Under the pieces are notes generated by a model. That model saw nothing but the letters and a program-made list of their open reading frames with translations, made no database searches and had not been told where the DNA came from. DNA of 49,454 bases from Candidatus Parcubacteria bacterium (GTDB lineage: Bacteria; Patescibacteriota; Minisyncoccia; UBA6257; 2-01-FULL-56-20). The stretch spans positions 1-49,454 of the forward strand of contig DAIDLF010000022.1 of assembly GCA_027449645.1 (NCBI GenBank). The letters run 5' to 3'. The translations under genes were made by a program, and so were the position numbers. Positions 21,985-31,650 of this stretch are shown piece after piece; the first letter of the stretch is position 1, and each line of letters begins with the position of its first letter.

Positions 21985-23007
21985 ATGCGCACCAAAATTA
22001 TCGCGACCATAGGTCCCATATCCGATTCGCAAGACATGATCCAAAAATTCGTCGATGCCGGCATGGACATTGCCCGCATCAACTTTTCACACGCGAAGGA
22101 AGAATGGTTCCTTGAGGTCCAGAAGCGCCTCGCGGCGGCATCCCGGAAGGCAAAGCGGAACGTTCCCATCATGCAGGACCTCCAAGGTCCGCGCATCCGC
22201 GTAGGCGAACTGCCGAAGGAGGGCGTGAAGCTCGTGGAGGGGGAGACGGTGACCTTCTCCACGAAGAAGGACGATCCCCGCACCATCTTCATCGATGCCC
22301 CCAAGCTGCACCGCGACATGCGGCGCGGCGAAACGATCTATCTCGCAAACGGCGACATGGAGCTTTCGGTCACGCGCATCACGGGCAACCGCATCGCGGC
22401 GCGGGTGACGCGCGGCGGAATGCTGTATTCGCGCAAGGGCGTCAACCTGCCGGATACGGCGCTCTCCAATGCAGGCCTCACTCCGAAGGATGTCCGCGAC
22501 GTGAAATTTGCCTTAAAGCACGGCGTAAGCGTATTCGCCATCTCGTTCGTGCAGTCAGCGAAGGATATCGCGGCGCTCCGCAAGCTTGTCGGCCCGAAAG
22601 CGAAGATCATCGCCAAGGTGGAGACGGCCCTTGGCGTGCGCAATATCGACGAGATCATCCTCGCATCCGATGCCATCATGATCGCGCGCGGCGACCTCGG
22701 CATCGAGATCGCGGCGGAAAAGATCCCATTCATCCAGAAAAACCTCATCCGCCATGCCGCATGGTATGGCAAGGGCACCGTCACGGCTACGCAGATGCTG
22801 GTTTCCATGGTGGACCATGCCCGCCCCACGCGCGCGGAGGTGTCGGACATCGCGAACGCCGTCTGGGACGGCTCGGATGCGGTCATGCTCTCTGATGAGA
22901 CGGCGAGCGGAAAATATCCGCTGGAGGCGCTGCGGACCATGGCGAGGATCGTTGCCCAGGCCGAATCCTCCCGCTTCGACATCAAGAACCCGCTCGCGGG
23001 GTGGTAA
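21985..23007 (+). CDS. pyk: Pyruvate kinase, short form lacking the C-terminal regulatory domain
   Basis: The start MRTKIIATIGP is at 21985. Contains ARINFSH, MIARGDLGIE and MLSDETASGKYP. The ORF ends about 340 aa in, right after the barrel domain. Confidence 0.85.
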   Translation: MRTKIIATIGPISDSQDMIQKFVDAGMDIARINFSHAKEEWFLEVQKRLAAASRKAKRNVPIMQDLQGPRIRVGELPKEGVKLVEGETVTFSTKKDDPRTIFIDAPKLHRDMRRGETIYLANGDMELSVTRITGNRIAARVTRGGMLYSRKGVNLPDTALSNAGLTPKDVRDVKFALKHGVSVFAISFVQSAKDIAALRKLVGPKAKIIAKVETALGVRNIDEIILASDAIMIARGDLGIEIAAEKIPFIQKNLIRHAAWYGKGTVTATQMLVSMVDHARPTRAEVSDIANAVWDGSDAVMLSDETASGKYPLEALRTMARIVAQAESSRFDIKNPLAGW

Positions 23008-23591: not shown

Positions 23592-23659
23592 AATAAGAAA
23601 GGAGGATGCGCGCGCAGGCGTCGTTGATTTATCCTTTGATCGGAAAGGGGAAGACACCT

Positions 23660-25081
23660 ATGACGCAAGAGCAAGCTCTCAACATCCTCAAACTCGGCAA
23701 AAATGTTTTCCTTACCGGTGCGCCAGGCGCCGGAAAGACATATCTCCTTGCACAGTATATAGACTTTCTCCGATTGAACGATGTGAACCCCGCGATCACG
23801 GCCTACACGGGCATCGCGGCAAGCCATCTTAACGGGAAAACCCTCCATTCCTGGGCGGGGCTTCGGCCGGGCCCGCTTCGTGCGTTCGCGCAGGAGCGCG
23901 ACAGGGTGCGCAACAATCAGTTTTTGACCGCAAAGATTACACGGGCAAAGGTGCTCATCATTGATGAGATCTCCATGCTCAGCCCCGAACTTTTTGAACA
24001 GGTTGATTTCATCTGTAAAACTGCGCGGAACTCCATGGAACCTTTCGGAGGGTTGCAGCTCATATGCTCGGGCGATTTCTTCCAGATACCCCCGGTCAAC
24101 CAGGAAAACGGGCGGTTCGTACTCGATAGCGGGATATGGGAGGAGGCAAAAATGAAAATATGCTATCTCCATGAGCAGCACCGGCAAGGAGACCACAAAC
24201 TTCTCGGAATACTTGAGGAAATTCGGAGAGGGGATGTGGGCGCGGATGCCATTGCGCTCCTCAAAAGCAGGGTCGGGGCAAAAATCGATGCGCCGATCGG
24301 CGTCGCCCGGCTCTATACCCATAATGAAGACGTCGATGAGATCAACGAAAGGGAACTCCGCAAACTTACCGGCCCCGAGATCATCTATGAGGTGCATTCA
24401 ACCGGAGACGCCAAGGTCATCGAAAAGCTCAAAAAGGATTACCGGATAAAAAATATCAGCCTCAAAAAGGGCGCGCGGGTGATGTTCACCAGAAATAATG
24501 AGGGGATGGGCTATGTGAACGGGACCCTGGGAGAGATAGTTGATTTTGACGGGGACGGCGATCCCGTAGTGATGACCTTTGACCAGCAGAGGATCGCCGT
24601 GGCGCGAGAGCAATGGGATCTTGAGGACAACGGAGAAACAAAGGCGTCGGTTTGGCAGGTCCCCTTGAGGCTGGCATGGGCTATCACGGTCCATAAAAGC
24701 CAGGGCATGACGCTCGACGCTGCAGAGATAGAGCTTTCGCGCGCATTTGAAGAGGGCATGGGTTATGTGGCGCTTTCCCGGGTGAAACGATTGGAGAACC
24801 TATCCCTTATCGGATGGAATGATGTCGCGCTCAAGGTGAATGACCGCATCAAAAGGATCGATGATGAATTCCTGGAGCAATCAATTGAAACGGAGAATTA
24901 TTTGCACGGTCTTGGCGCCGAGCGCGTTGACCGTTTACAGAGGGAGTTTGTGGCGGCCATGAAAGAAGAAGGAGAGGCCCCAAAAGTGCAAGCCGGGGCA
25001 TTCCATTATGAACCGGACGAAGTTCCCGTCATTGATTTTGAGGGATACGGATCAATCAACGCCGAGGATATCCCTTTCTAG
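23660..25081 (+). CDS. PIF1/RecD-like SF1 DNA helicase
   Basis: Walker A is LTGAPGAGKTYLL and Walker B is LIIDEISML. Also contains GDFFQIPPV and HKSQGMTLD. The ATG at 23660 is preferred over the 23606 start in the ORF track. Confidence 0.8.
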   Translation: MTQEQALNILKLGKNVFLTGAPGAGKTYLLAQYIDFLRLNDVNPAITAYTGIAASHLNGKTLHSWAGLRPGPLRAFAQERDRVRNNQFLTAKITRAKVLIIDEISMLSPELFEQVDFICKTARNSMEPFGGLQLICSGDFFQIPPVNQENGRFVLDSGIWEEAKMKICYLHEQHRQGDHKLLGILEEIRRGDVGADAIALLKSRVGAKIDAPIGVARLYTHNEDVDEINERELRKLTGPEIIYEVHSTGDAKVIEKLKKDYRIKNISLKKGARVMFTRNNEGMGYVNGTLGEIVDFDGDGDPVVMTFDQQRIAVAREQWDLEDNGETKASVWQVPLRLAWAITVHKSQGMTLDAAEIELSRAFEEGMGYVALSRVKRLENLSLIGWNDVALKVNDRIKRIDDEFLEQSIETENYLHGLGAERVDRLQREFVAAMKEEGEAPKVQAGAFHYEPDEVPVIDFEGYGSINAEDIPF

Positions 25082-25622: not shown

Positions 25623-25707
25623 CGAGAAACCCTCCTTTGCTTGAACTTGCTGCTGAGTTGAAAATCAGCTGTTTATAATATTATCACTATTCAGCGATAC
25701 TGTCAAT

Positions 25708-25737
25708 AGTGCTGGCCGGCTTGGACGATGTTCGAAC
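25708..25737 (-). repeat. Degenerate copy of the tRNA-Gln 3' end and trailer (candidate distal att remnant)
   Basis: AGTGCTG..CCGG..GGA..TTCGAAC here compares with AGTGCTGCCGGGCAGGGATTCGAAC at 30381-30405. About 22 positions match, with two indels, in the same orientation. Confidence 0.3.
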
Positions 25738-25757
25738 TGTATTGTGGTATAATACAG
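25737..25757 (+). promoter_or_regulatory. Extended -10 promoter (TGGTATAAT) embedded in a 7-bp inverted repeat
   Basis: TGGTATAAT at 25745-25753. CTGTATT at 25737-25743 pairs with AATACAG at 25751-25757. It lies upstream of the AT-rich + strand ORFs. Confidence 0.5.
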
Positions 25758-25871
25758 GCATAGGGGCTTTAGGTAGATTTTACATATAATCTATTGAAAA
25801 GTGGATATTATGCGCTTAAAAGATTGGCATTGTCTTCAAGTCGCGATGCTTGTAATCATTACCGTTGAGCG

Positions 25872-26093
25872 ATGAAAGAGAAGAATAAAAAATTTTGGCG
25901 GTTTATTTTGGGGGTTGGTGCAATATCTTTTTTAGATCAGATAATAGAAAATAAAGAGGAGGAAATCAAAGAATTAAGGGCGAAACTTGAAGAAGCTCGC
26001 GAAAAAAAAGAACCACAGTTTGGTACATATCTCTATGAAACCTATGGCATAGAAGATGAGAATGACCTAGATGCGTGGTTTAATGAAGAATAG
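25872..26093 (+). CDS. Small hypothetical protein with one TM helix and an acidic coiled-coil tail (73 aa)
   Basis: ATG start, AT-rich codons. Contains FWRFILGVGAISFL, then EEEIKELRAKLEEAREKK. Confidence 0.5.
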   Translation: MKEKNKKFWRFILGVGAISFLDQIIENKEEEIKELRAKLEEAREKKEPQFGTYLYETYGIEDENDLDAWFNEE

Positions 26094-26204
26094 TTTCGGT
26101 TCGATAGGTTGAAGTACAGACTGGTTTGGAGATGTCTAGTATTAAGGTTTAATAAAAATGCAACAAGGAACTTAGAATTATAATCAATTATAGATTAAAA
26201 AATT

Positions 26205-26453
26205 ATGATATTTACTGATTTTGTTGAAAGGCTACTTCAGTTAAATGTTGATCGCGACAAGATATTTCTATTGGAATCCTTTGCCGCCAAACACGCAGAA
26301 CAAACCTTTTTAAAGGATGGAGAGCCTAAGGAAACCACTGCTCAAATTAGCATGAGAATTGAATTTTCAAGGGGGAAAATTTTGAGCGAATTTGAAGAAA
26401 ATATTAAAAATGGAAAATCGGTAGAGTATTTAGTCGATTTGTTATTAAAATAG
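26205..26453 (+). CDS. Small hypothetical protein (82 aa)
   Basis: ATG start, same strand and composition as its neighbours. No recognised domain. Confidence 0.45.
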   Translation: MIFTDFVERLLQLNVDRDKIFLLESFAAKHAEQTFLKDGEPKETTAQISMRIEFSRGKILSEFEENIKNGKSVEYLVDLLLK

Positions 26454-26492
26454 TTTCCCATTTTTTGGATTGTTTCTAGGTTTATATAAGGT

Positions 26493-26972
26493 ATGAACGA
26501 CTATAAAGCTGTGATAAAATCAGGCATATTACCAATAGAAAGCAATCCCGAATTGTTAGTGGAATACGGCAGAGCTTTTGCGCGGATTAACACTCTTGAA
26601 TATTTACTCGAAGAGTTAATCATTGTTAAAGGGGGCTTGGGATCGGTCAAAAAAGATCTGAGGGAGAAGTTGGTTAATAAAAAAATGTTAGGTCAAAAAA
26701 TAGAGCTTGCAGCTACCTTGCTCGAGCCAACGCTTATAAGTAAGCTTCGGTCTTTAAATGATAAGCGAATTCTGTTAGCTCATAATGCCACGGCTCAAGA
26801 AATAAATAATTCTGGTGACGAACAGAAACCGGGAAATTATGTTATTGGGATAGGCGAGAAGCAAGAAATTTTAACAAATAAATTTTTATCAGATATCAGT
26901 AATCTAGCTCAAGAACTTTTAGTAGATTTCCACGCAGCCTTTCTAAAGGGAACCAAATTTGAACTAAAGTAA
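26493..26972 (+). CDS. Hypothetical all-alpha protein with an HEPN-like Rx4H motif (159 aa)
   Basis: LRSLNDKRILLAHNAT resembles the R-x4-H (R.K.AH-type) catalytic motif of HEPN/Abi RNases. The size and helical character also fit. Confidence 0.4.
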   Translation: MNDYKAVIKSGILPIESNPELLVEYGRAFARINTLEYLLEELIIVKGGLGSVKKDLREKLVNKKMLGQKIELAATLLEPTLISKLRSLNDKRILLAHNATAQEINNSGDEQKPGNYVIGIGEKQEILTNKFLSDISNLAQELLVDFHAAFLKGTKFELK

Positions 26973-27878
26973 TCAGGAATACCCCGCAAGCATCCGCTTA
27001 TACGTGAGTGCTGTTGAAACAAGCGCACTGTTTTCTAAAACGAGCAGGGCAACGAGTACATTCTCAGGCTTCACGCCGTGCATCGAACCGAGAAAGTAGC
27101 GAGATAAACTCGTAATGCCATAAGCAGTATCAAATGGATCGTAGGGGATCATATCTTCGTATTTTCCAGCATCAAGGTCTTTTGCGAGAAGTTTCAGGTC
27201 AAGTCGCTCGAAGGGTTCGCAGCCAAGCTTTGTTTTTATTGATTCACCAAAAGAAGGGAAGCCCCTTTTAATATATTGAAACATGAAGCTCCCGATGGTA
27301 TTAAGTTTTATCTTTTTTATTTTGCCTGTATTTGTAATAAGAACCTCATCGGAAAGGAAAGCGAGTGATCGTCCAAGATCGGTATCGGTCGCTTTCAGCT
27401 GTGCGAAGGTTATTACGCTTCCAACAAGCATACTACTCACAACGTCCATCGTGTTGCGTTTCATATATTTGAAGAATGCCTCCTTTGCTTCTCGAACATC
27501 CGAAGCGAGTTGGCGTTTCTTCTTCATTCTGAGGTCTTCCGCAACGCATTCAAGAGCAAGATCAAAATCTTCGTTGTTGTCAGCATGATCGATGATATAG
27601 TCGATCTGGAAATGAAGTATGTCCTTCATCATATTATTTAAGGCGTGTTCATTGTCGCCCTCGGGAATCCTAAGCTTACCCGCAAGCCGTGAGAAGCTTT
27701 TTTCAAGATTTTCCCTCGATATGCGCTTTTCTTGATCGTCTTTGCAGCGTCCTTTTTGATATTCGGAACAGATATAATAAGCCCCGCTCTTGGTGAGGGT
27801 ATGGCCTGAAACGGCAAATTTAAGCACGCCTTTAGGAAAATAGGAGGGTGCTTTGGGGGTGAAGGCTGATCGAGGCAT
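26973..27878 (-). CDS. Hypothetical protein whose N-terminus resembles the zinc-ribbon/coiled-coil segment of a large serine recombinase (possible remnant or fusion)
   Basis: FPKGVLKFAVSGHTLTKSGAYYICSEYQKGRCKD....LAGKLRIPE here compares with FPLRGFMTCDVCGCMLTATLQKGKYVYYYCTNGKKICDQ....LFGQLRIDE in the 28927-30432 product. The first Cys pair is lost here. Confidence 0.45.
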   Translation of the reverse strand: MPRSAFTPKAPSYFPKGVLKFAVSGHTLTKSGAYYICSEYQKGRCKDDQEKRISRENLEKSFSRLAGKLRIPEGDNEHALNNMMKDILHFQIDYIIDHADNNEDFDLALECVAEDLRMKKKRQLASDVREAKEAFFKYMKRNTMDVVSSMLVGSVITFAQLKATDTDLGRSLAFLSDEVLITNTGKIKKIKLNTIGSFMFQYIKRGFPSFGESIKTKLGCEPFERLDLKLLAKDLDAGKYEDMIPYDPFDTAYGITSLSRYFLGSMHGVKPENVLVALLVLENSALVSTALTYKRMLAGYS

Positions 27879-27966
27879 AGAGTTACACGCCCTTTATACC
27901 TCAAAATCCTCATTTTTACACGTTCGCTCATCCACTACCGACAAACCGCCCCCGTTGTAGGTAGTG

Positions 27967-28176
27967 ATGCCCAATTTTAGCCAAGAACTCATATCCGAGG
28001 TGATCGCCTATTTTGGCGAGCGGGAGGACCGCCTTATAGTCCCCGAAGAAGCGGAGGCGTATTTGGCATCCTTAGCCGAGCTGTATTGGTGCTTCACGGA
28101 GTCGATGAGGCGCAGGGAGTTGGGCAGGAGGGCCGATCCGCCGCAGGCGGGCGGCCCAAACCTTCCCCTGACTTGA
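27967..28176 (+). CDS. Small hypothetical protein upstream of Rep (69 aa)
   Basis: ATG at 27967; the ORF track starts it at a GTG at 27964. Its stop TGA at 28174-28176 lies inside the putative nick-site motif. Confidence 0.35.
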   Translation: MPNFSQELISEVIAYFGEREDRLIVPEEAEAYLASLAELYWCFTESMRRRELGRRADPPQAGGPNLPLT

Positions 28177-28197
28177 TATCCCCACATAGTTGTAATC
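28168..28197 (+). other. Candidate rolling-circle origin or nick site (phiX174-like ACTTGATAT core)
   Basis: CTGACTTGATATCCCCACATAGTTGTAAT lies immediately 5' of the Rep ATG. As I recall it, the phiX174 origin is CAACTTGATATTAATAACACTATAG. Confidence 0.4.
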
Positions 28198-28198
28198 C

Positions 28199-28930
28199 AT
28201 GGGAATTCATTTTAGAAAATATGGCAAAGTCATCGAGATCACGGAAATCGAGCACGAGCCGTCCAAAGTACGCGTATATGCTCCGCGAATCCGCCCTGAT
28301 GTTCACGGGTCTCGGCGATCAGATAGTATTCGAAGGACAAGGACAATATGTCTGTGGCGCGTGTTTGCTGGCGTTGAAGAATTTGGAAGCCCGCTCCTCG
28401 TTACTCTTACCTTCGACGGAGACGCCTCGGATGCCTCTTATGCAAACGATACCCTTCGCCGCTTCCAAGTGCGGTTGCGCGATCAATATCCTGAAGCCCA
28501 ATCCCTCTTTGTTCCCGAATTATCCCCACGAGGACGCATCCACTTTCATGGTTTGCTCTTTAACCTGCCAATGCATCTCGGCGATACGCGCCAGGGTAGA
28601 CGGATCGTGGAGCATGGCACGGAACGAAAAGACAGGATTATCGCCCAGCTTTGGGGCGAAGGTTTTGTGGATGTCCGAAAAACTGATGGTTCTCCAAGGT
28701 TGGGATATTATATCGCCAAGTACATCACAAAGGGGTCAGAGCAAACCCTCTTTAACGCCATGAGGATTCTTCGTATCTCTCGCGGATTCCCTCGGCAGAT
28801 TGAGATCAGTGGCCCCATGGCCGAGGAGCTTAAACGCCGTTACGACCCGAAAACACCAATCAAGGAGTGGGAGGGTAATAATATCTTCCTTGGCAAGATC
28901 AAACGGAAAACGTATATTCAAGACACATGA
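28199..28930 (+). CDS. HUH-superfamily rolling-circle replication initiator (phiX174 gpA / Microviridae VP4-like Rep)
   Basis: 243 aa. Motif 1 is LLVTLTF, motif 2 is RIHFHGLLF (HUH), and motif 3 is GYYIAKYITKG (YxxKY; compare phiX gpA FYVAKYVNK). Also contains LWGEGFVDV. Confidence 0.75.
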   Translation: MGIHFRKYGKVIEITEIEHEPSKVRVYAPRIRPDVHGSRRSDSIRRTRTICLWRVFAGVEEFGSPLLVTLTFDGDASDASYANDTLRRFQVRLRDQYPEAQSLFVPELSPRGRIHFHGLLFNLPMHLGDTRQGRRIVEHGTERKDRIIAQLWGEGFVDVRKTDGSPRLGYYIAKYITKGSEQTLFNAMRILRISRGFPRQIEISGPMAEELKRRYDPKTPIKEWEGNNIFLGKIKRKTYIQDT

Positions 28931-30432
28931 ACTATATTCTCTATTGCCGCAAATCGTCTGAGGCAGAAGATCGCCAAGTCCTTTCTCTTGATTCTCAAGA
29001 GACGGAGCTGAAGCGCCTCGCGGCGGCGGAAGGATATAAGATCATCGAGGTATATCGCGAATCCATGTCGGCAAAGGCTCCGAATCGGCCGCTCTTTGAT
29101 GGGATGATGAATCGGATCGAGAAAGGGGAGGCGCAAGGTGTACTTTGTTGGAAGCTCGATCGTCTCGCACGCAATCCCGTGGACGGCGGCAAGATAAGCT
29201 GGCTTCTTCAGCGCGGCGTGATCCAATCCATTCAAACTCATGACCGCGTGTATCGTCCTTCTGATAATGTCCTTATGATGGCCGTCGAGTTCGGTATGGC
29301 GAACCAATACGTTCTTGATCTAACCGCGAACGTGAAGCGCGGTAATCGGGCGAAGCTTGAAAAAGGTGGCTGGCCGAATATGGCCCCCTATGGATATTGG
29401 AATGATAAGAATGATAAATCGGTGAAAATCGTTTCCGAAAACGCGGCCGTGGTGCGCCGTGCTTTTGAACTGCACGCTACGGGCTTATACGATCTCCGCG
29501 AAACTGCGGATCGGCTCTACGAAGAAGGGCACCGCACACCGAGCGGCAAGCGGGTCGCCAAAAGCATGGTGCATAAAATCCTCCGTAATTCATTCTACTG
29601 TGGCATTATGCTCAAGGACGGCGCGTATTATGCGGGCAAGCACGAGCCGATCGTCTCAAAAGACCTTTTTGATAAGGCGAATGACGTGCTTGATGGAAAG
29701 AATCATTCGAAAGTCCAAAAACATTTCTTCCCACTCCGTGGCTTTATGACCTGCGATGTATGCGGCTGTATGCTCACCGCTACGCTCCAAAAGGGAAAAT
29801 ACGTATATTACTATTGCACGAACGGAAAAAAGATTTGTGATCAGCGCAAAAAACACCTTACTGCCAAGGATGCCGAAATTCTGATCGGCTCGCTTTTTGG
29901 CCAGTTACGGATCGACGAGCGCATTTTGGATATCGCTTTTAAGGCCTACGAGGAGAGGTTTAAATACGAGGAGGTTTCCGTGGAGGATCGCCGTCAAATC
30001 GTCCAAAATTCGATCTCTGCGCTTGAGGAGCGACAGAATCGCCTCGTGGATAGTTTTGTGGCGGGAATCACGCCTAGCGGCGTATATGAGCAAAAAATGA
30101 CCACCCTGAGGAACGAGAGGGTTGCGCTTCAAACTCAGCTTCAGCAGATCGGACAAGGGAATGATCCGTCAGAAATCACTTTCGAACAAATCAAAAACGT
30201 ATTTTTGACAGCAAATTCAATAGCTAATTCGTTCCTCGATGGATCGGATGAAGAAAAACGAGAGTATGCTCAAATTTTACTTTCGAACGTTTCGTTGAGA
30301 GATCAAAAAATCCAAAAATATCAGTTCAAACCCGTCTATCAGGCCATCGCAAATATACCAAAAAAAGACGATTTTGAGAGAGTGCTGCCGGGCAGGGATT
30401 CGAACCCCGATAGATGGATTCAGAGTCCATAG
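28927..30432 (+). CDS. Large serine recombinase (integrase-type)
   Basis: 501 aa. The catalytic N-terminus is ILYCRKSSEAEDRQ...LDRLARN. A recombinase domain follows, then a zinc ribbon (CDVCGC...YYYCTNGKKIC) and a coiled coil. An ATGA start/stop overlap couples it to Rep. The last 16 codons overlap tRNA-Gln. Confidence 0.85.
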   Translation: MNYILYCRKSSEAEDRQVLSLDSQETELKRLAAAEGYKIIEVYRESMSAKAPNRPLFDGMMNRIEKGEAQGVLCWKLDRLARNPVDGGKISWLLQRGVIQSIQTHDRVYRPSDNVLMMAVEFGMANQYVLDLTANVKRGNRAKLEKGGWPNMAPYGYWNDKNDKSVKIVSENAAVVRRAFELHATGLYDLRETADRLYEEGHRTPSGKRVAKSMVHKILRNSFYCGIMLKDGAYYAGKHEPIVSKDLFDKANDVLDGKNHSKVQKHFFPLRGFMTCDVCGCMLTATLQKGKYVYYYCTNGKKICDQRKKHLTAKDAEILIGSLFGQLRIDERILDIAFKAYEERFKYEEVSVEDRRQIVQNSISALEERQNRLVDSFVAGITPSGVYEQKMTTLRNERVALQTQLQQIGQGNDPSEITFEQIKNVFLTANSIANSFLDGSDEEKREYAQILLSNVSLRDQKIQKYQFKPVYQAIANIPKKDDFERVLPGRDSNPDRWIQSP

Positions 30433-30455
30433 TCCTACCATTAGACGACCCGGCA
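30385..30455 (-). tRNA. tRNA-Gln (anticodon CTG)
   Basis: Hand-folded 71-nt cloverleaf: TGCCGGG TC GTCT AATGGTA GGAC T ATGGA CTCTGAA TCCAT CTAT CGGGG TTCGAAT CCCTG CCCGGCA G. It has U1:A72 and G73 as in bacterial tRNA-Gln. CCA is not encoded. Confidence 0.9.
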
Positions 30456-30489
30456 ATGGGAAGGGTAGGGATGTACGCGAACGCTCTTT

Positions 30490-30517
30490 ATTATACGCAC
30501 CCTGCGCTTTTTATCAA
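30490..30517 (-). promoter_or_regulatory. Near-consensus promoter for tRNA-Gln
   Basis: On the minus strand, TTGATA (30517-30512), a 16 nt spacer, then TATAAT (30495-30490). This is about 35 nt upstream of the tRNA 5' end. Confidence 0.6.
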
Positions 30518-30531
30518 TATGCCGTCCGGGA

Positions 30532-31650
30532 CTAGCCCAGGTTTTCCACGATGGCGACCTCCAGCGGCACGACGGCGAAGGGGGAGTAGCGCATTTCGGC
30601 GTAGGCGCGGATGAGCGCGCGGATGAGCTTCACGAGCGCCGCGGTGTCGCTTGCGGCGCCAAGCTGCTTGATGGCGGTCACTTCGTCGCGGGTGAGGTCC
30701 TTTTCAAAGACCGGCTCGAGCGCGGGATTCACCGAAAGCGAAAGCACCTTGCGCAGGTAGTGGATGAGGTCGCGCGTGAACTGCACGAGATTGTGGCCGT
30801 CGTCCTGGAGCGCGGCGATCACGCCAAGCGCGCCCTTGGCGTCGCGGGCAAGGAGGAGCGCGGCGAGCTCATGGACGCGGCGGAGACCGGTGCGCCCGGT
30901 GATGCGCTCGGCATCGTCCAGGGTGATGGACGCGCTGGAAGCGGCTTTATTGAAAGAGGATACCTGTTCCAAAAGCGACTCCGCATCGCGGAAGCTGCCT
31001 TCGCCTGCGGCGGCAAGGAGCTCCAGTGCGCCGTCGTCGATCTTGATCTTTTCGGCCTTCGCGATCGCGGCGAGCTTTTCCATGATGGTCGCCTTGGCCT
31101 GCTTGCGGAACGCAAAGCGCTGGGCGCGCGAGATGATCGTCGCCGGAAGCTTTTCGTACTCCGTGGTGGCCATGATGATCACCACATGCCGCGGCGGCTC
31201 CTCGAGCGTTTTGAGGAGCGCGTTCCATGCGGCACCCGTGAGCATGTGCGCCTCATCAATGATGTACACCTTAAATGCGCCGCCTCCCGGCGCCGCCTTG
31301 ATGTTCTCCTTGAGATTGCGGATCTCATCGATGCCCCGGTTGGAGGCCGCATCGATCTCGATGACGTCCATGGAGTTCTGCGCATCGATCGCGAGGCATT
31401 CGCGGCATTCGTTGCACGGTTCGCAGAGGGCCGCGAACTTCGGATCGTTCCGGCGCTTCTCGCAGTTCAGGAGCTTGGCAATGAGCCGCGCCGTCGTGGT
31501 CTTCCCGGTGCCGCGCGCCCCGTAAAAAATATATGCCTGCCCAAGGCGCCCGGCTTTCGCCGCGTTCTTGAGGATCTGCATGTTGAGATCCTGCCCAAGC
31601 ACGTCCTCCAGCTTTTGGGGGCGGTATTTGCGATAGAGCGCTTGTGCCAT
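30532..31650 (-). CDS. dnaX: DNA polymerase III subunit gamma/tau
   Basis: The start MAQALYRKYRPQKLEDVLGQ is at 31650. Contains GARGTGKTTTARL, a CEPCNECRECLAI zinc module, YIIDEAHMLT and a SRAQRF sensor. Confidence 0.9.
   Translation of the reverse strand: MAQALYRKYRPQKLEDVLGQDLNMQILKNAAKAGRLGQAYIFYGARGTGKTTTARLIAKLLNCEKRRNDPKFAALCEPCNECRECLAIDAQNSMDVIEIDAASNRGIDEIRNLKENIKAAPGGGAFKVYIIDEAHMLTGAAWNALLKTLEEPPRHVVIIMATTEYEKLPATIISRAQRFAFRKQAKATIMEKLAAIAKAEKIKIDDGALELLAAAGEGSFRDAESLLEQVSSFNKAASSASITLDDAERITGRTGLRRVHELAALLLARDAKGALGVIAALQDDGHNLVQFTRDLIHYLRKVLSLSVNPALEPVFEKDLTRDEVTAIKQLGAASDTAALVKLIRALIRAYAEMRYSPFAVVPLEVAIVENLG

Follow-up and report, generated by a model that had tools for sequence, protein, structure and literature searches.

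What is a strongly AT-rich block with three small open reading frames (ORFs) doing in a patescibacterial genome, and does it encode a defence system? The block occupies positions 25623-26972 of the window, a 49,454-nucleotide stretch from a Candidatus Parcubacteria bacterium (contig C22 of a 666-kb metagenome-assembled genome (MAG) in 40 contigs). A preliminary description, made from the letters alone, had taken it for a separately acquired module nested in an island, with the architecture of a three-gene abortive-infection or toxin-antitoxin-like cassette. We find that this block makes up the variable, distal cargo end of an integrative element of 4.64 kb at a tRNA-Gln gene (about 25738-30383), very probably a swappable one. 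The last of its genes, ORF3, belongs to an unannotated family of small helical proteins, which is probably part of the HEPN superfamily.

The block as the cargo end of an integrative element

Guanine-plus-cytosine (GC) content is 0.352 across the block versus 0.44-0.55 in its neighbours and 0.60 in the genome (core 0.59-0.60), a contrast that had been seen correctly from the start. Within the block it is 0.398 in intergenic DNA, 0.342 in ORF1, 0.333 in ORF2 and 0.365 in ORF3. Outside, it is 0.544 in the left-hand 159-aa gene, 0.442 in the right-hand 301-aa gene, 0.503 in the replication initiator and 0.482 in the recombinase. The boundaries and backbone of the element are as follows.

25708..25743, no strand: genus-conserved junction motif ..CCGGCTTGGACGATGTTCGAAC.., from cross-genome matches; marks the distal end of the variable stretch
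26973..27878, minus strand: backbone gene, 301 aa, with homologues at the same backbone position in genomes G408 and G789
27964..28176, plus strand: small backbone ORF, 70 aa, upstream of the replication initiator, at the same position in G408 (34% identity) and G789 (44%)
28199..28930, plus strand: rolling-circle replication initiator (Rep); Pfam REP_ORF2-G2P, E 7.6e-14; PHROG rolling-circle replication initiation, E 1.4e-8
28927..30432, plus strand: large serine recombinase with Pfam Resolvase, Recombinase and Zn_ribbon_recom domains
30384..30455, minus strand: tRNA-Gln (CTG), found by ARAGORN; proximal boundary and integration target

The element is bounded by the genus-conserved motif on its distal side and by tRNA-Gln on its proximal side, and its conserved backbone consists of the 301-aa gene, the 70-aa ORF (without a match in a Pfam scan), Rep and the recombinase. 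The AT-rich block forms the distal terminus of this element and is not, as first described, a cassette nested inside a 7-kb island.

To compare the contents of the cargo slot, we used the two sister elements that were found. In the G408 element, from the same genus, the 301-aa protein has a 321-aa homologue (39% identical across residues 13-299); Rep is 68% and the recombinase 48% identical, and the small ORF is there too. Beyond the 3' end of the 321-aa gene lies DNA of GC 0.33-0.40 in a 0.6-GC genome, whose genes specify an OLD-family nuclease of the ATPase-TOPRIM kind (PADLOC Old at 1.6e-29; Pfam AAA_15 and OLD-like_TOPRIM), together with a DUF2726 protein and an orphan of 196 aa. In the G789 element, from the same class in a genome of 32% GC, the homologue has 309 aa (24% identity), the small ORF is present and the recombinase runs to its end within tRNA-Gln(TTG); the slot is occupied by a type II restriction-modification (R-M) system, made up of an N4/N6 methyltransferase that has HEAT repeats and a CfrBI-like restriction enzyme, and by a DUF2726 protein. 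Three homologous elements thus carry three unrelated gene sets at one position, two of them with recognisable defence genes. Because the sister elements keep the backbone and carry unrelated AT-rich genes at the same position, the earlier view of a separately acquired module is supported, and because two of these slots contain defence genes, the exchange also provides the basis for a defence reading. With two comparators, the sequences support a defence-type cargo hotspot in the element.

An element remnant was also seen at a tRNA-Gln(TTG) in G652 (L049, G652:C53, 8234-9026). Its confirmed piece is a C-terminal recombinase fragment (aa 377-500) overlapping the tRNA, and the genome search placed a C-terminal fragment of the 301-aa gene directly beside it. 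The remnant looks like a deletion derivative.

At the proximal end, the final 16 codons (about 48 nt) of the recombinase frame overlap the oppositely oriented tRNA-Gln. Since the frame runs into the tRNA gene, the element carries the 3' part of the tRNA, which serves as coding sequence at the same time. The same arrangement, a recombinase ending inside tRNA-Gln, is found in the distantly related G789 element (L048, 8050-9578).

The tRNA-Gln and its right flank have orthologous counterparts in relatives. G402 and G420 share this tRNA-Gln, its right flank and the junction motif at the orthologous site but lack the element there: tRNA-Gln and the motif are separated by only 690 bp (G402) and 588 bp (G420), and these stretches are unrelated, also to each other. 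An empty site defined by both flanks was ruled out, as pyruvate kinase and tRNA-Gln are far apart in relatives. Island region aside, the pyruvate kinase flank (21985-23007) and the tRNA-Gln flank (30456-31500) are neighbours here, and they lie at least 65 kb apart in G403, G406 and G414, members of the same genus whose contigs are long. This adjacency points to a rearrangement at or near the site in this lineage.

At the distal end, the junction motif agrees with G402 in 89% of 36 nt and with G420 in 88% of 33 nt, and each of these genomes has it on the 3' side of the orthologous tRNA-Gln, in the same orientation. Of 23 same-genus genomes, 9 have its core, ..TGGACGAT[G/T]TTCGAAC; reversed controls gave 0 matches, and there were none outside the genus. 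The core (22-30 nt; 25716-25737 in the window) has 1-3 copies per genome; the other carriers are G402, G403, G409, G412, G416, G419, G420 and G422. In three genomes a copy is found near tRNA-Gln, and in G409 copies flank a tRNA-Ala on either side. We also considered 25708-25737 as a displaced tRNA 3' end on the strength of a within-window likeness, which is not significant (181 of 200 shuffles score equally well). The stretch is kept as a conserved junction motif because the cross-genome matches support it; it may represent a displaced tRNA end or a site of attachment type.

The opposite edge of the block is equally sharp. The ORF3 stop TAA (26970-26972) directly touches TCA (26973-26975), the stop of the minus-strand 301-aa gene, so that two convergent stops abut with zero spacer, as had been reported. 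The 301-aa protein ends 25-45 residues short of its homologues at the C-terminus, and homology extends to residue 299 of 301. Because the protein lacks the C-terminal tail of its homologues and its frame halts at once where AT-rich DNA starts, the abutting stops and the composition step at 26972/26973 are most readily explained by a recombination breakpoint within the 301-aa gene's 3' end. At its other end, residues 13-73 of this protein align weakly with the zinc-ribbon region of the element's own recombinase (residues 267-331; 30% identity, pairwise E 0.005); the first Cys pair is gone there.

Such abrupt compositional steps in a genome assembled from a metagenome into 40 contigs could also arise from an assembly chimera. 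However, both edges of the block coincide with gene ends and with the conserved junction motif, the complete ORFs on both sides are not expected from a chimeric join, and the sister elements of two other genomes repeat the pattern, with Rep and recombinase GC above that of the distal cargo. We consider a chimera extremely improbable, and retain the block as the exchanged end of the element.

P2/P4 hotspots and phage satellites are defence-cargo hotspots of small integrative elements. The present element resembles such systems in its conserved integration and replication core, its integration at a tRNA gene and its slot exchanging unrelated AT-rich defence genes. It differs in that its core pairs a large serine recombinase with a rolling-circle Rep within only 4.6 kb in total, its hosts are ultra-small Patescibacteria, and its recombinase frame enters the tRNA gene. 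Pipolins (PMC11551731), tycheposons (10.1101/2020.12.28.424599) and SCCmec-adjacent islands (PMC11470126) are further well-known cases of a conserved core combined with a defence-cargo hotspot.

ORF3 and its unannotated family

The three small ORFs first described are all present, on the same strand. An additional short frame lies upstream of them.

25810..25875, plus strand: upstream ORF, 21 codons, read from sequence; its stop overlaps the ORF1 start (ATGA); status uncertain
25872..26093, plus strand: ORF1, orphan, 73 aa, basic at its N-terminus, with a hydrophobic segment (residues ~9-25) that is a borderline candidate for a membrane span, and a helical tail that is acidic
26205..26453, plus strand: ORF2, 82 aa, soluble and acidic, ending 39 nt upstream of ORF3; orphan
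26493..26972, plus strand: ORF3, 159 aa, of an unannotated family of helical proteins (about 145-155 aa) with an invariant Rx4H (R92, H97)

All three had been called orphans that match no family. ORF1 and ORF2 are orphans indeed, but ORF3 has 74 representative relatives at E <=1e-3 in an exhaustive HMMER search, nearly all of 140-155 aa. The statement that no family is matched holds for curated libraries only. A word-indexed search of 5.8 billion clusters with ORF3 gave two relatives only. Relatives that could be placed come from Gracilibacteria and Saccharibacteria MAGs, from 23 of 401 sampled Patescibacteria genomes and from AT-rich metagenome contigs, and the distribution of the family appears limited to Patescibacteria.

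In 62 aligned members only G26, R92 and H97 are invariant. R92 and H97 are the only invariant polar residues across these diverged sequences and form an Rx4H dyad within the block LNxxRxxLAH, which agrees with the conserved Rx4-6H motif of HEPN proteins. The HEPN dyad is placed at the end of helix 3 (PMC3710099). An AlphaFold2 model of ORF3, built from a 12-sequence alignment (predicted local distance difference test (pLDDT) 85.4, predicted template-modelling score (pTM) 0.78), has helices at 19-46, 54-72 (broken), 79-96 and 129-151 and a beta-meander at 101-126. In this predicted model, R92 ends the third helix (79-96) and H97 starts the next loop, the position expected of a HEPN motif.

Comparisons with known HEPN proteins gave weaker signals. 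HEPN_RiboL-PSP is matched weakly by 4 of the 62 members and by L007 (E 4.6e-4 to 4e-3, short of the cut-off) and is the only family to recur. When the ORF3 family was compared with three genuine RiboL-PSP HEPN proteins by hhalign, Rx4H fell on Rx4H with an E of 0.0056. The highest-probability Protein Data Bank (PDB) match in both Foldseek runs was 1wwp (probability 0.51 and 0.35; template-modelling score 0.56 and 0.48 by target length), which is listed as a HEPN structure (PMC3710099).

Several results pull the other way. ORF3 has zero significant matches to Pfam, PADLOC, PHROGs and NCBIfam, including any curated HEPN model, and the hhalign probability in the comparison with RiboL-PSP HEPN proteins is just 6.5%. 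Two ORF3 models searched against the PDB with Foldseek gave nothing at E <0.3, and the best viral match (one model against BFVD) is an unnamed protein at a non-significant E of 0.019. Sequence searches of the PDB gave nothing with ORF3 alone and chance-level matches with the family profile. Thus the profile and structure searches suggested in the preliminary description did find relatives for ORF3, but not a significant HEPN profile or fold match. Its reading of ORF3 as a putative RNase remains plausible on the strength of the invariant Rx4H in 62 relatives at the end of predicted helix 3. Because the motif and its position in the model agree with HEPN while profile and fold similarity fall short of significance, membership of ORF3 in the HEPN superfamily is probable.

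Among HEPN proteins, ORF3 is most naturally set beside the solo or abortive-infection (Abi) type (Abi2/AbiD/AbiF, AbiU2, AbiJ, AbiV, RiboL-PSP-HEPN PF18735; PMC3710099), of which solo Abi genes are already known (PMC3710099). Like these, it is small and all-helical, its family has an invariant Rx4H where helix 3 ends and the loop to helix 4 begins, and the gene stands alone, sometimes beside R-M and toxin genes and, for ORF3 itself, on a mobile element. Unlike these, it matches no Pfam, NCBIfam, PADLOC or PHROG model significantly. Its subfamily motif is K-R-x-L-L-A-H, unlike the canonical RNxxxH, and a three-strand beta-meander follows the motif, where the Csx1 family has a beta-hairpin insert immediately after it (PMC3710099). 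A 979-aa protein in the representative library (P0045) matches ORF3 in five separate stretches and may be a tandem array of this HEPN-like domain.

Distant profile matches to ORF3 occur in other Patescibacteria, and 18 of 18 carry the canonical RNxx[A/V/S]H at the aligned place. These proteins (L008-L025; 117-177 aa; e.g. L015:1405-1758, L012:1315-1719, L017:1276-1725) have one such motif each and no Pfam matches. Several have a conserved housekeeping context, where they separate gatA from gatB or follow either a phosphoglucosamine-mutase-like or a cyclophilin gene. This looks like a small HEPN-like gene fixed in housekeeping operons of candidate phyla radiation (CPR) bacteria.

ORF3 might alternatively be a helical protein without nuclease activity, such as a regulator or a structural protein, in which case the cargo would be hitch-hiking low-GC orphan DNA without a defence function. 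The missing significant match to HEPN or any defence family, in sequence or fold, fits this possibility, as do the several ORF3 relatives among housekeeping genes and the distant relatives fixed in housekeeping operons. But R and H at Rx4H spacing are the sole invariant polar residues in 62 sequences, which favours catalysis over scaffolding, all 18 distant matches have RNxxxH, and the slot of the sister elements holds bona fide defence genes. We therefore regard a non-nuclease ORF3 as improbable and keep to the probable HEPN assignment.

Gene neighbourhoods and the suggested three-gene cassette

In about 30 loci, no partner gene recurs upstream or downstream of close ORF3 relatives, and no relative of ORF1 or ORF2 lies beside them. 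One relative lies between RhuM, HsdS and MazF-like genes, and others adjoin NucS-like, NYN, RNase_T-like or DUF6119 genes. Viral contigs searched with the 12-sequence subset alignment contained no relatives of ORF3, and tblastn of all three ORFs against phage records gave no match. PADLOC-DB 2.0 had no match to ORF1, ORF2 or ORF3 at E <=0.1, and merely five scattered single matches to the 62 family members.

The survey of co-occurrence and the PADLOC-type scan proposed with the cassette reading have thus both turned out negative: ORF1 and ORF2 never accompany ORF3 relatives, and the cassette proteins match no system. A conserved three-gene system is not supported, because ORF1 and ORF2 lack relatives and are never found beside relatives of ORF3. 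The defence reading keeps a basis in the slot, which holds defence-type genes in the sister elements.

Alternatively, ORF3 as HEPN toxin and the acidic ORF2 as its antitoxin, with or without ORF1, could form a toxin-antitoxin addiction module that stabilises the element. ORF2 is small, acidic (15 D+E versus 12 K+R), encoded on the same strand and ends 39 nt upstream of ORF3; the pair is carried on a mobile element; and HEPN toxins with upstream antitoxins are well known (PMC4621449, PMC7641770). A possible HEPN toxin after a small same-strand gene recalls the HEPN-MNT (HepT-MntA) type II/VII modules. Unlike in those modules, however, ORF2 is not a nucleotidyltransferase (MNT) and the ORF3 family has no conserved partner: a Pfam scan found no MNT antitoxin gene beside ORF3, as neither ORF1 nor ORF2 has a nucleotidyltransferase domain, and ORF2 contains no other domain. 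ORF2 also has no relatives in any search, and the want of a recurrent partner in about 30 loci implies that the family generally needs no cognate antitoxin. A toxin-antitoxin pair is therefore unlikely, and we continue to treat ORF3 as a stand-alone gene.

Coding status of ORF1 and ORF2

ORF1 has no relatives in 5.8 billion protein clusters or phage records, and in 350 other Patescibacteria genomes searched in six frames it gave one marginal coiled-coil match and nothing else. ORF2 has none in the same clusters, in phage records or in 350-400 other Patescibacteria genomes (six frames). As with ORF3, scans of both against Pfam, PADLOC, PHROGs and NCBIfam yielded nothing usable. ORF1, earlier pictured as a transmembrane plus acidic coiled-coil protein, has an acidic helical tail; its transmembrane segment is borderline, with a top 15-residue Kyte-Doolittle mean of 1.91 (residues 11-25).

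One or both of these ORFs might not be genes, and the 0.87 kb upstream of ORF3 might be AT-rich DNA in decay or without coding function, for example a long leader or what is left of earlier cargo. Neither ORF has relatives in any search or a recognisable Shine-Dalgarno sequence, and ORF2 failed to find even itself in the protein collection. On the other hand, in both frames GC1 > GC3 > GC2 and first positions are purine-rich, as in ORF3 (codon-position GC of ORF2, 0.42/0.26/0.32, resembles that of ORF3), a pair of same-strand ORFs of at least 73 aa arises in just 0.45% of shuffles, and Rfam matches nothing in the region. From these compositional signals, both ORFs look coding. We consider the non-coding alternative rather unlikely; it is in any case compatible with a cargo end whose working gene is ORF3. 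The codon-position GC of the 21-codon upstream ORF is 0.55/0.29/0.43.

Putative control region and left neighbours

The AT-rich spacer at the left of the block contains candidate control signals.

25745..25753, plus strand: extended -10 promoter-like site TGGTATAAT, recognised from sequence; 8 nt inside the distal element end and pointing at ORF1-ORF3

The extended -10 sequence TGGTATAAT is indeed present at 25745-25753, and its sequence makes it a putative promoter for the cargo genes. A second, sigma-70-like site on the minus strand (25706 to 25678; TTGACA-17-TAATAT with TG, 10/12 consensus match) points at the 159-aa gene, opposite to ORF1-ORF3. The spacer is thus divergent, as the preliminary description had it, because this promoter-like site faces the 159-aa gene. 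An Rfam scan of the block gave zero family matches.

The 7-bp inverted repeats described for this region exist, CACTATT (25685)/AATAGTG (25705) and CTGTATT (25737)/AATACAG (25751), but not beyond chance: two perfect repeats in the 249-nt AT-rich spacer compare with 0.59 expected from dinucleotide-preserving shuffles (P ~0.14). They were rejected as operators for this reason. The second repeat does not flank the promoter, as had been thought; its right arm overlaps the -10 hexamer instead.

Further to the left, a Pif1/Dda-like helicase (23606-25081; PHROG Dda-like helicase, E 1.1e-64) and the minus-strand 159-aa gene probably do not belong to the element. For the helicase, this is because many same-genus genomes have homologues of 64-69% nucleotide identity at other positions, and because both copies that were examined, those of G406 and G411 (L053, L054), are at host-like GC. 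The 159-aa gene has zero relatives in five same-genus genomes. In G406 and G411 the helicase also adjoins AT-rich (0.34-0.41 GC), variable DNA, and for this reason it may neighbour another variable hotspot.

Discussion

Taken as a whole, an explanation in which the block is the cargo end of the element, ORF3 a HEPN-type effector, and ORF1 and ORF2 accessories stands at about even chances. Under this explanation, the cargo would be read from the extended -10 promoter 8 nt inside the element end. ORF3 would be the working gene, a stand-alone four-helix protein and HEPN-type metal-independent RNase, which would serve either as an addiction toxin or, as a one-gene effector, in abortive infection or against mobile elements. 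ORF2 and ORF1, the latter possibly an acidic helix anchored in the membrane, would be lineage-specific accessories rather than conserved partners, and might restrain or trigger ORF3. A defence or toxin role for ORF3 is tentative and falls a little short of an even chance.

Beyond the ORF3 comparisons above, further observations count on the negative side. The defence role is argued from two sister elements and by association, some of the ORF3 relatives sit in housekeeping surroundings, and ORF1 and ORF2 are without any comparative support. No good -35 lies 16-18 nt from the extended -10 site, which a two-hexamer scan did not list, and the junction motif is found away from tRNA-Gln too.

A bolder proposal is that ORF1-ORF2-ORF3 constitute an undescribed three-part abortive-infection system of ultra-small Patescibacteria, in which ORF1, as an acidic protein anchored in the membrane, would sense infection or envelope stress and ORF2 would restrain a new-subfamily HEPN RNase, ORF3, until triggered; distant relatives of the RNxxxH type, fixed in operons of gatCAB, glmM and cyclophilin, would then be domesticated versions with a housekeeping role in RNA processing. 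We judge this to be very unlikely.

Small integrative elements with a defence-cargo hotspot and solo HEPN Abi genes are already known in kind, and the finding reveals no new principle. The novelty lies in a compact family of elements in Patescibacteria and in a HEPN-like protein family that had no annotation. There is also a practical lesson, that "orphan cassette" calls from a single sequence need comparison with homologous elements. The HEPN-like family, of about 150 aa and with 74 representatives, merits a family model of its own. Patescibacteria have tiny genomes and are mostly uncultivated, and little is known of their mobile elements and immunity. A compact and well-delimited element family, with a serine recombinase and a rolling-circle Rep at tRNA-Gln, offers a slot in which new defence genes of the phylum can be sought.

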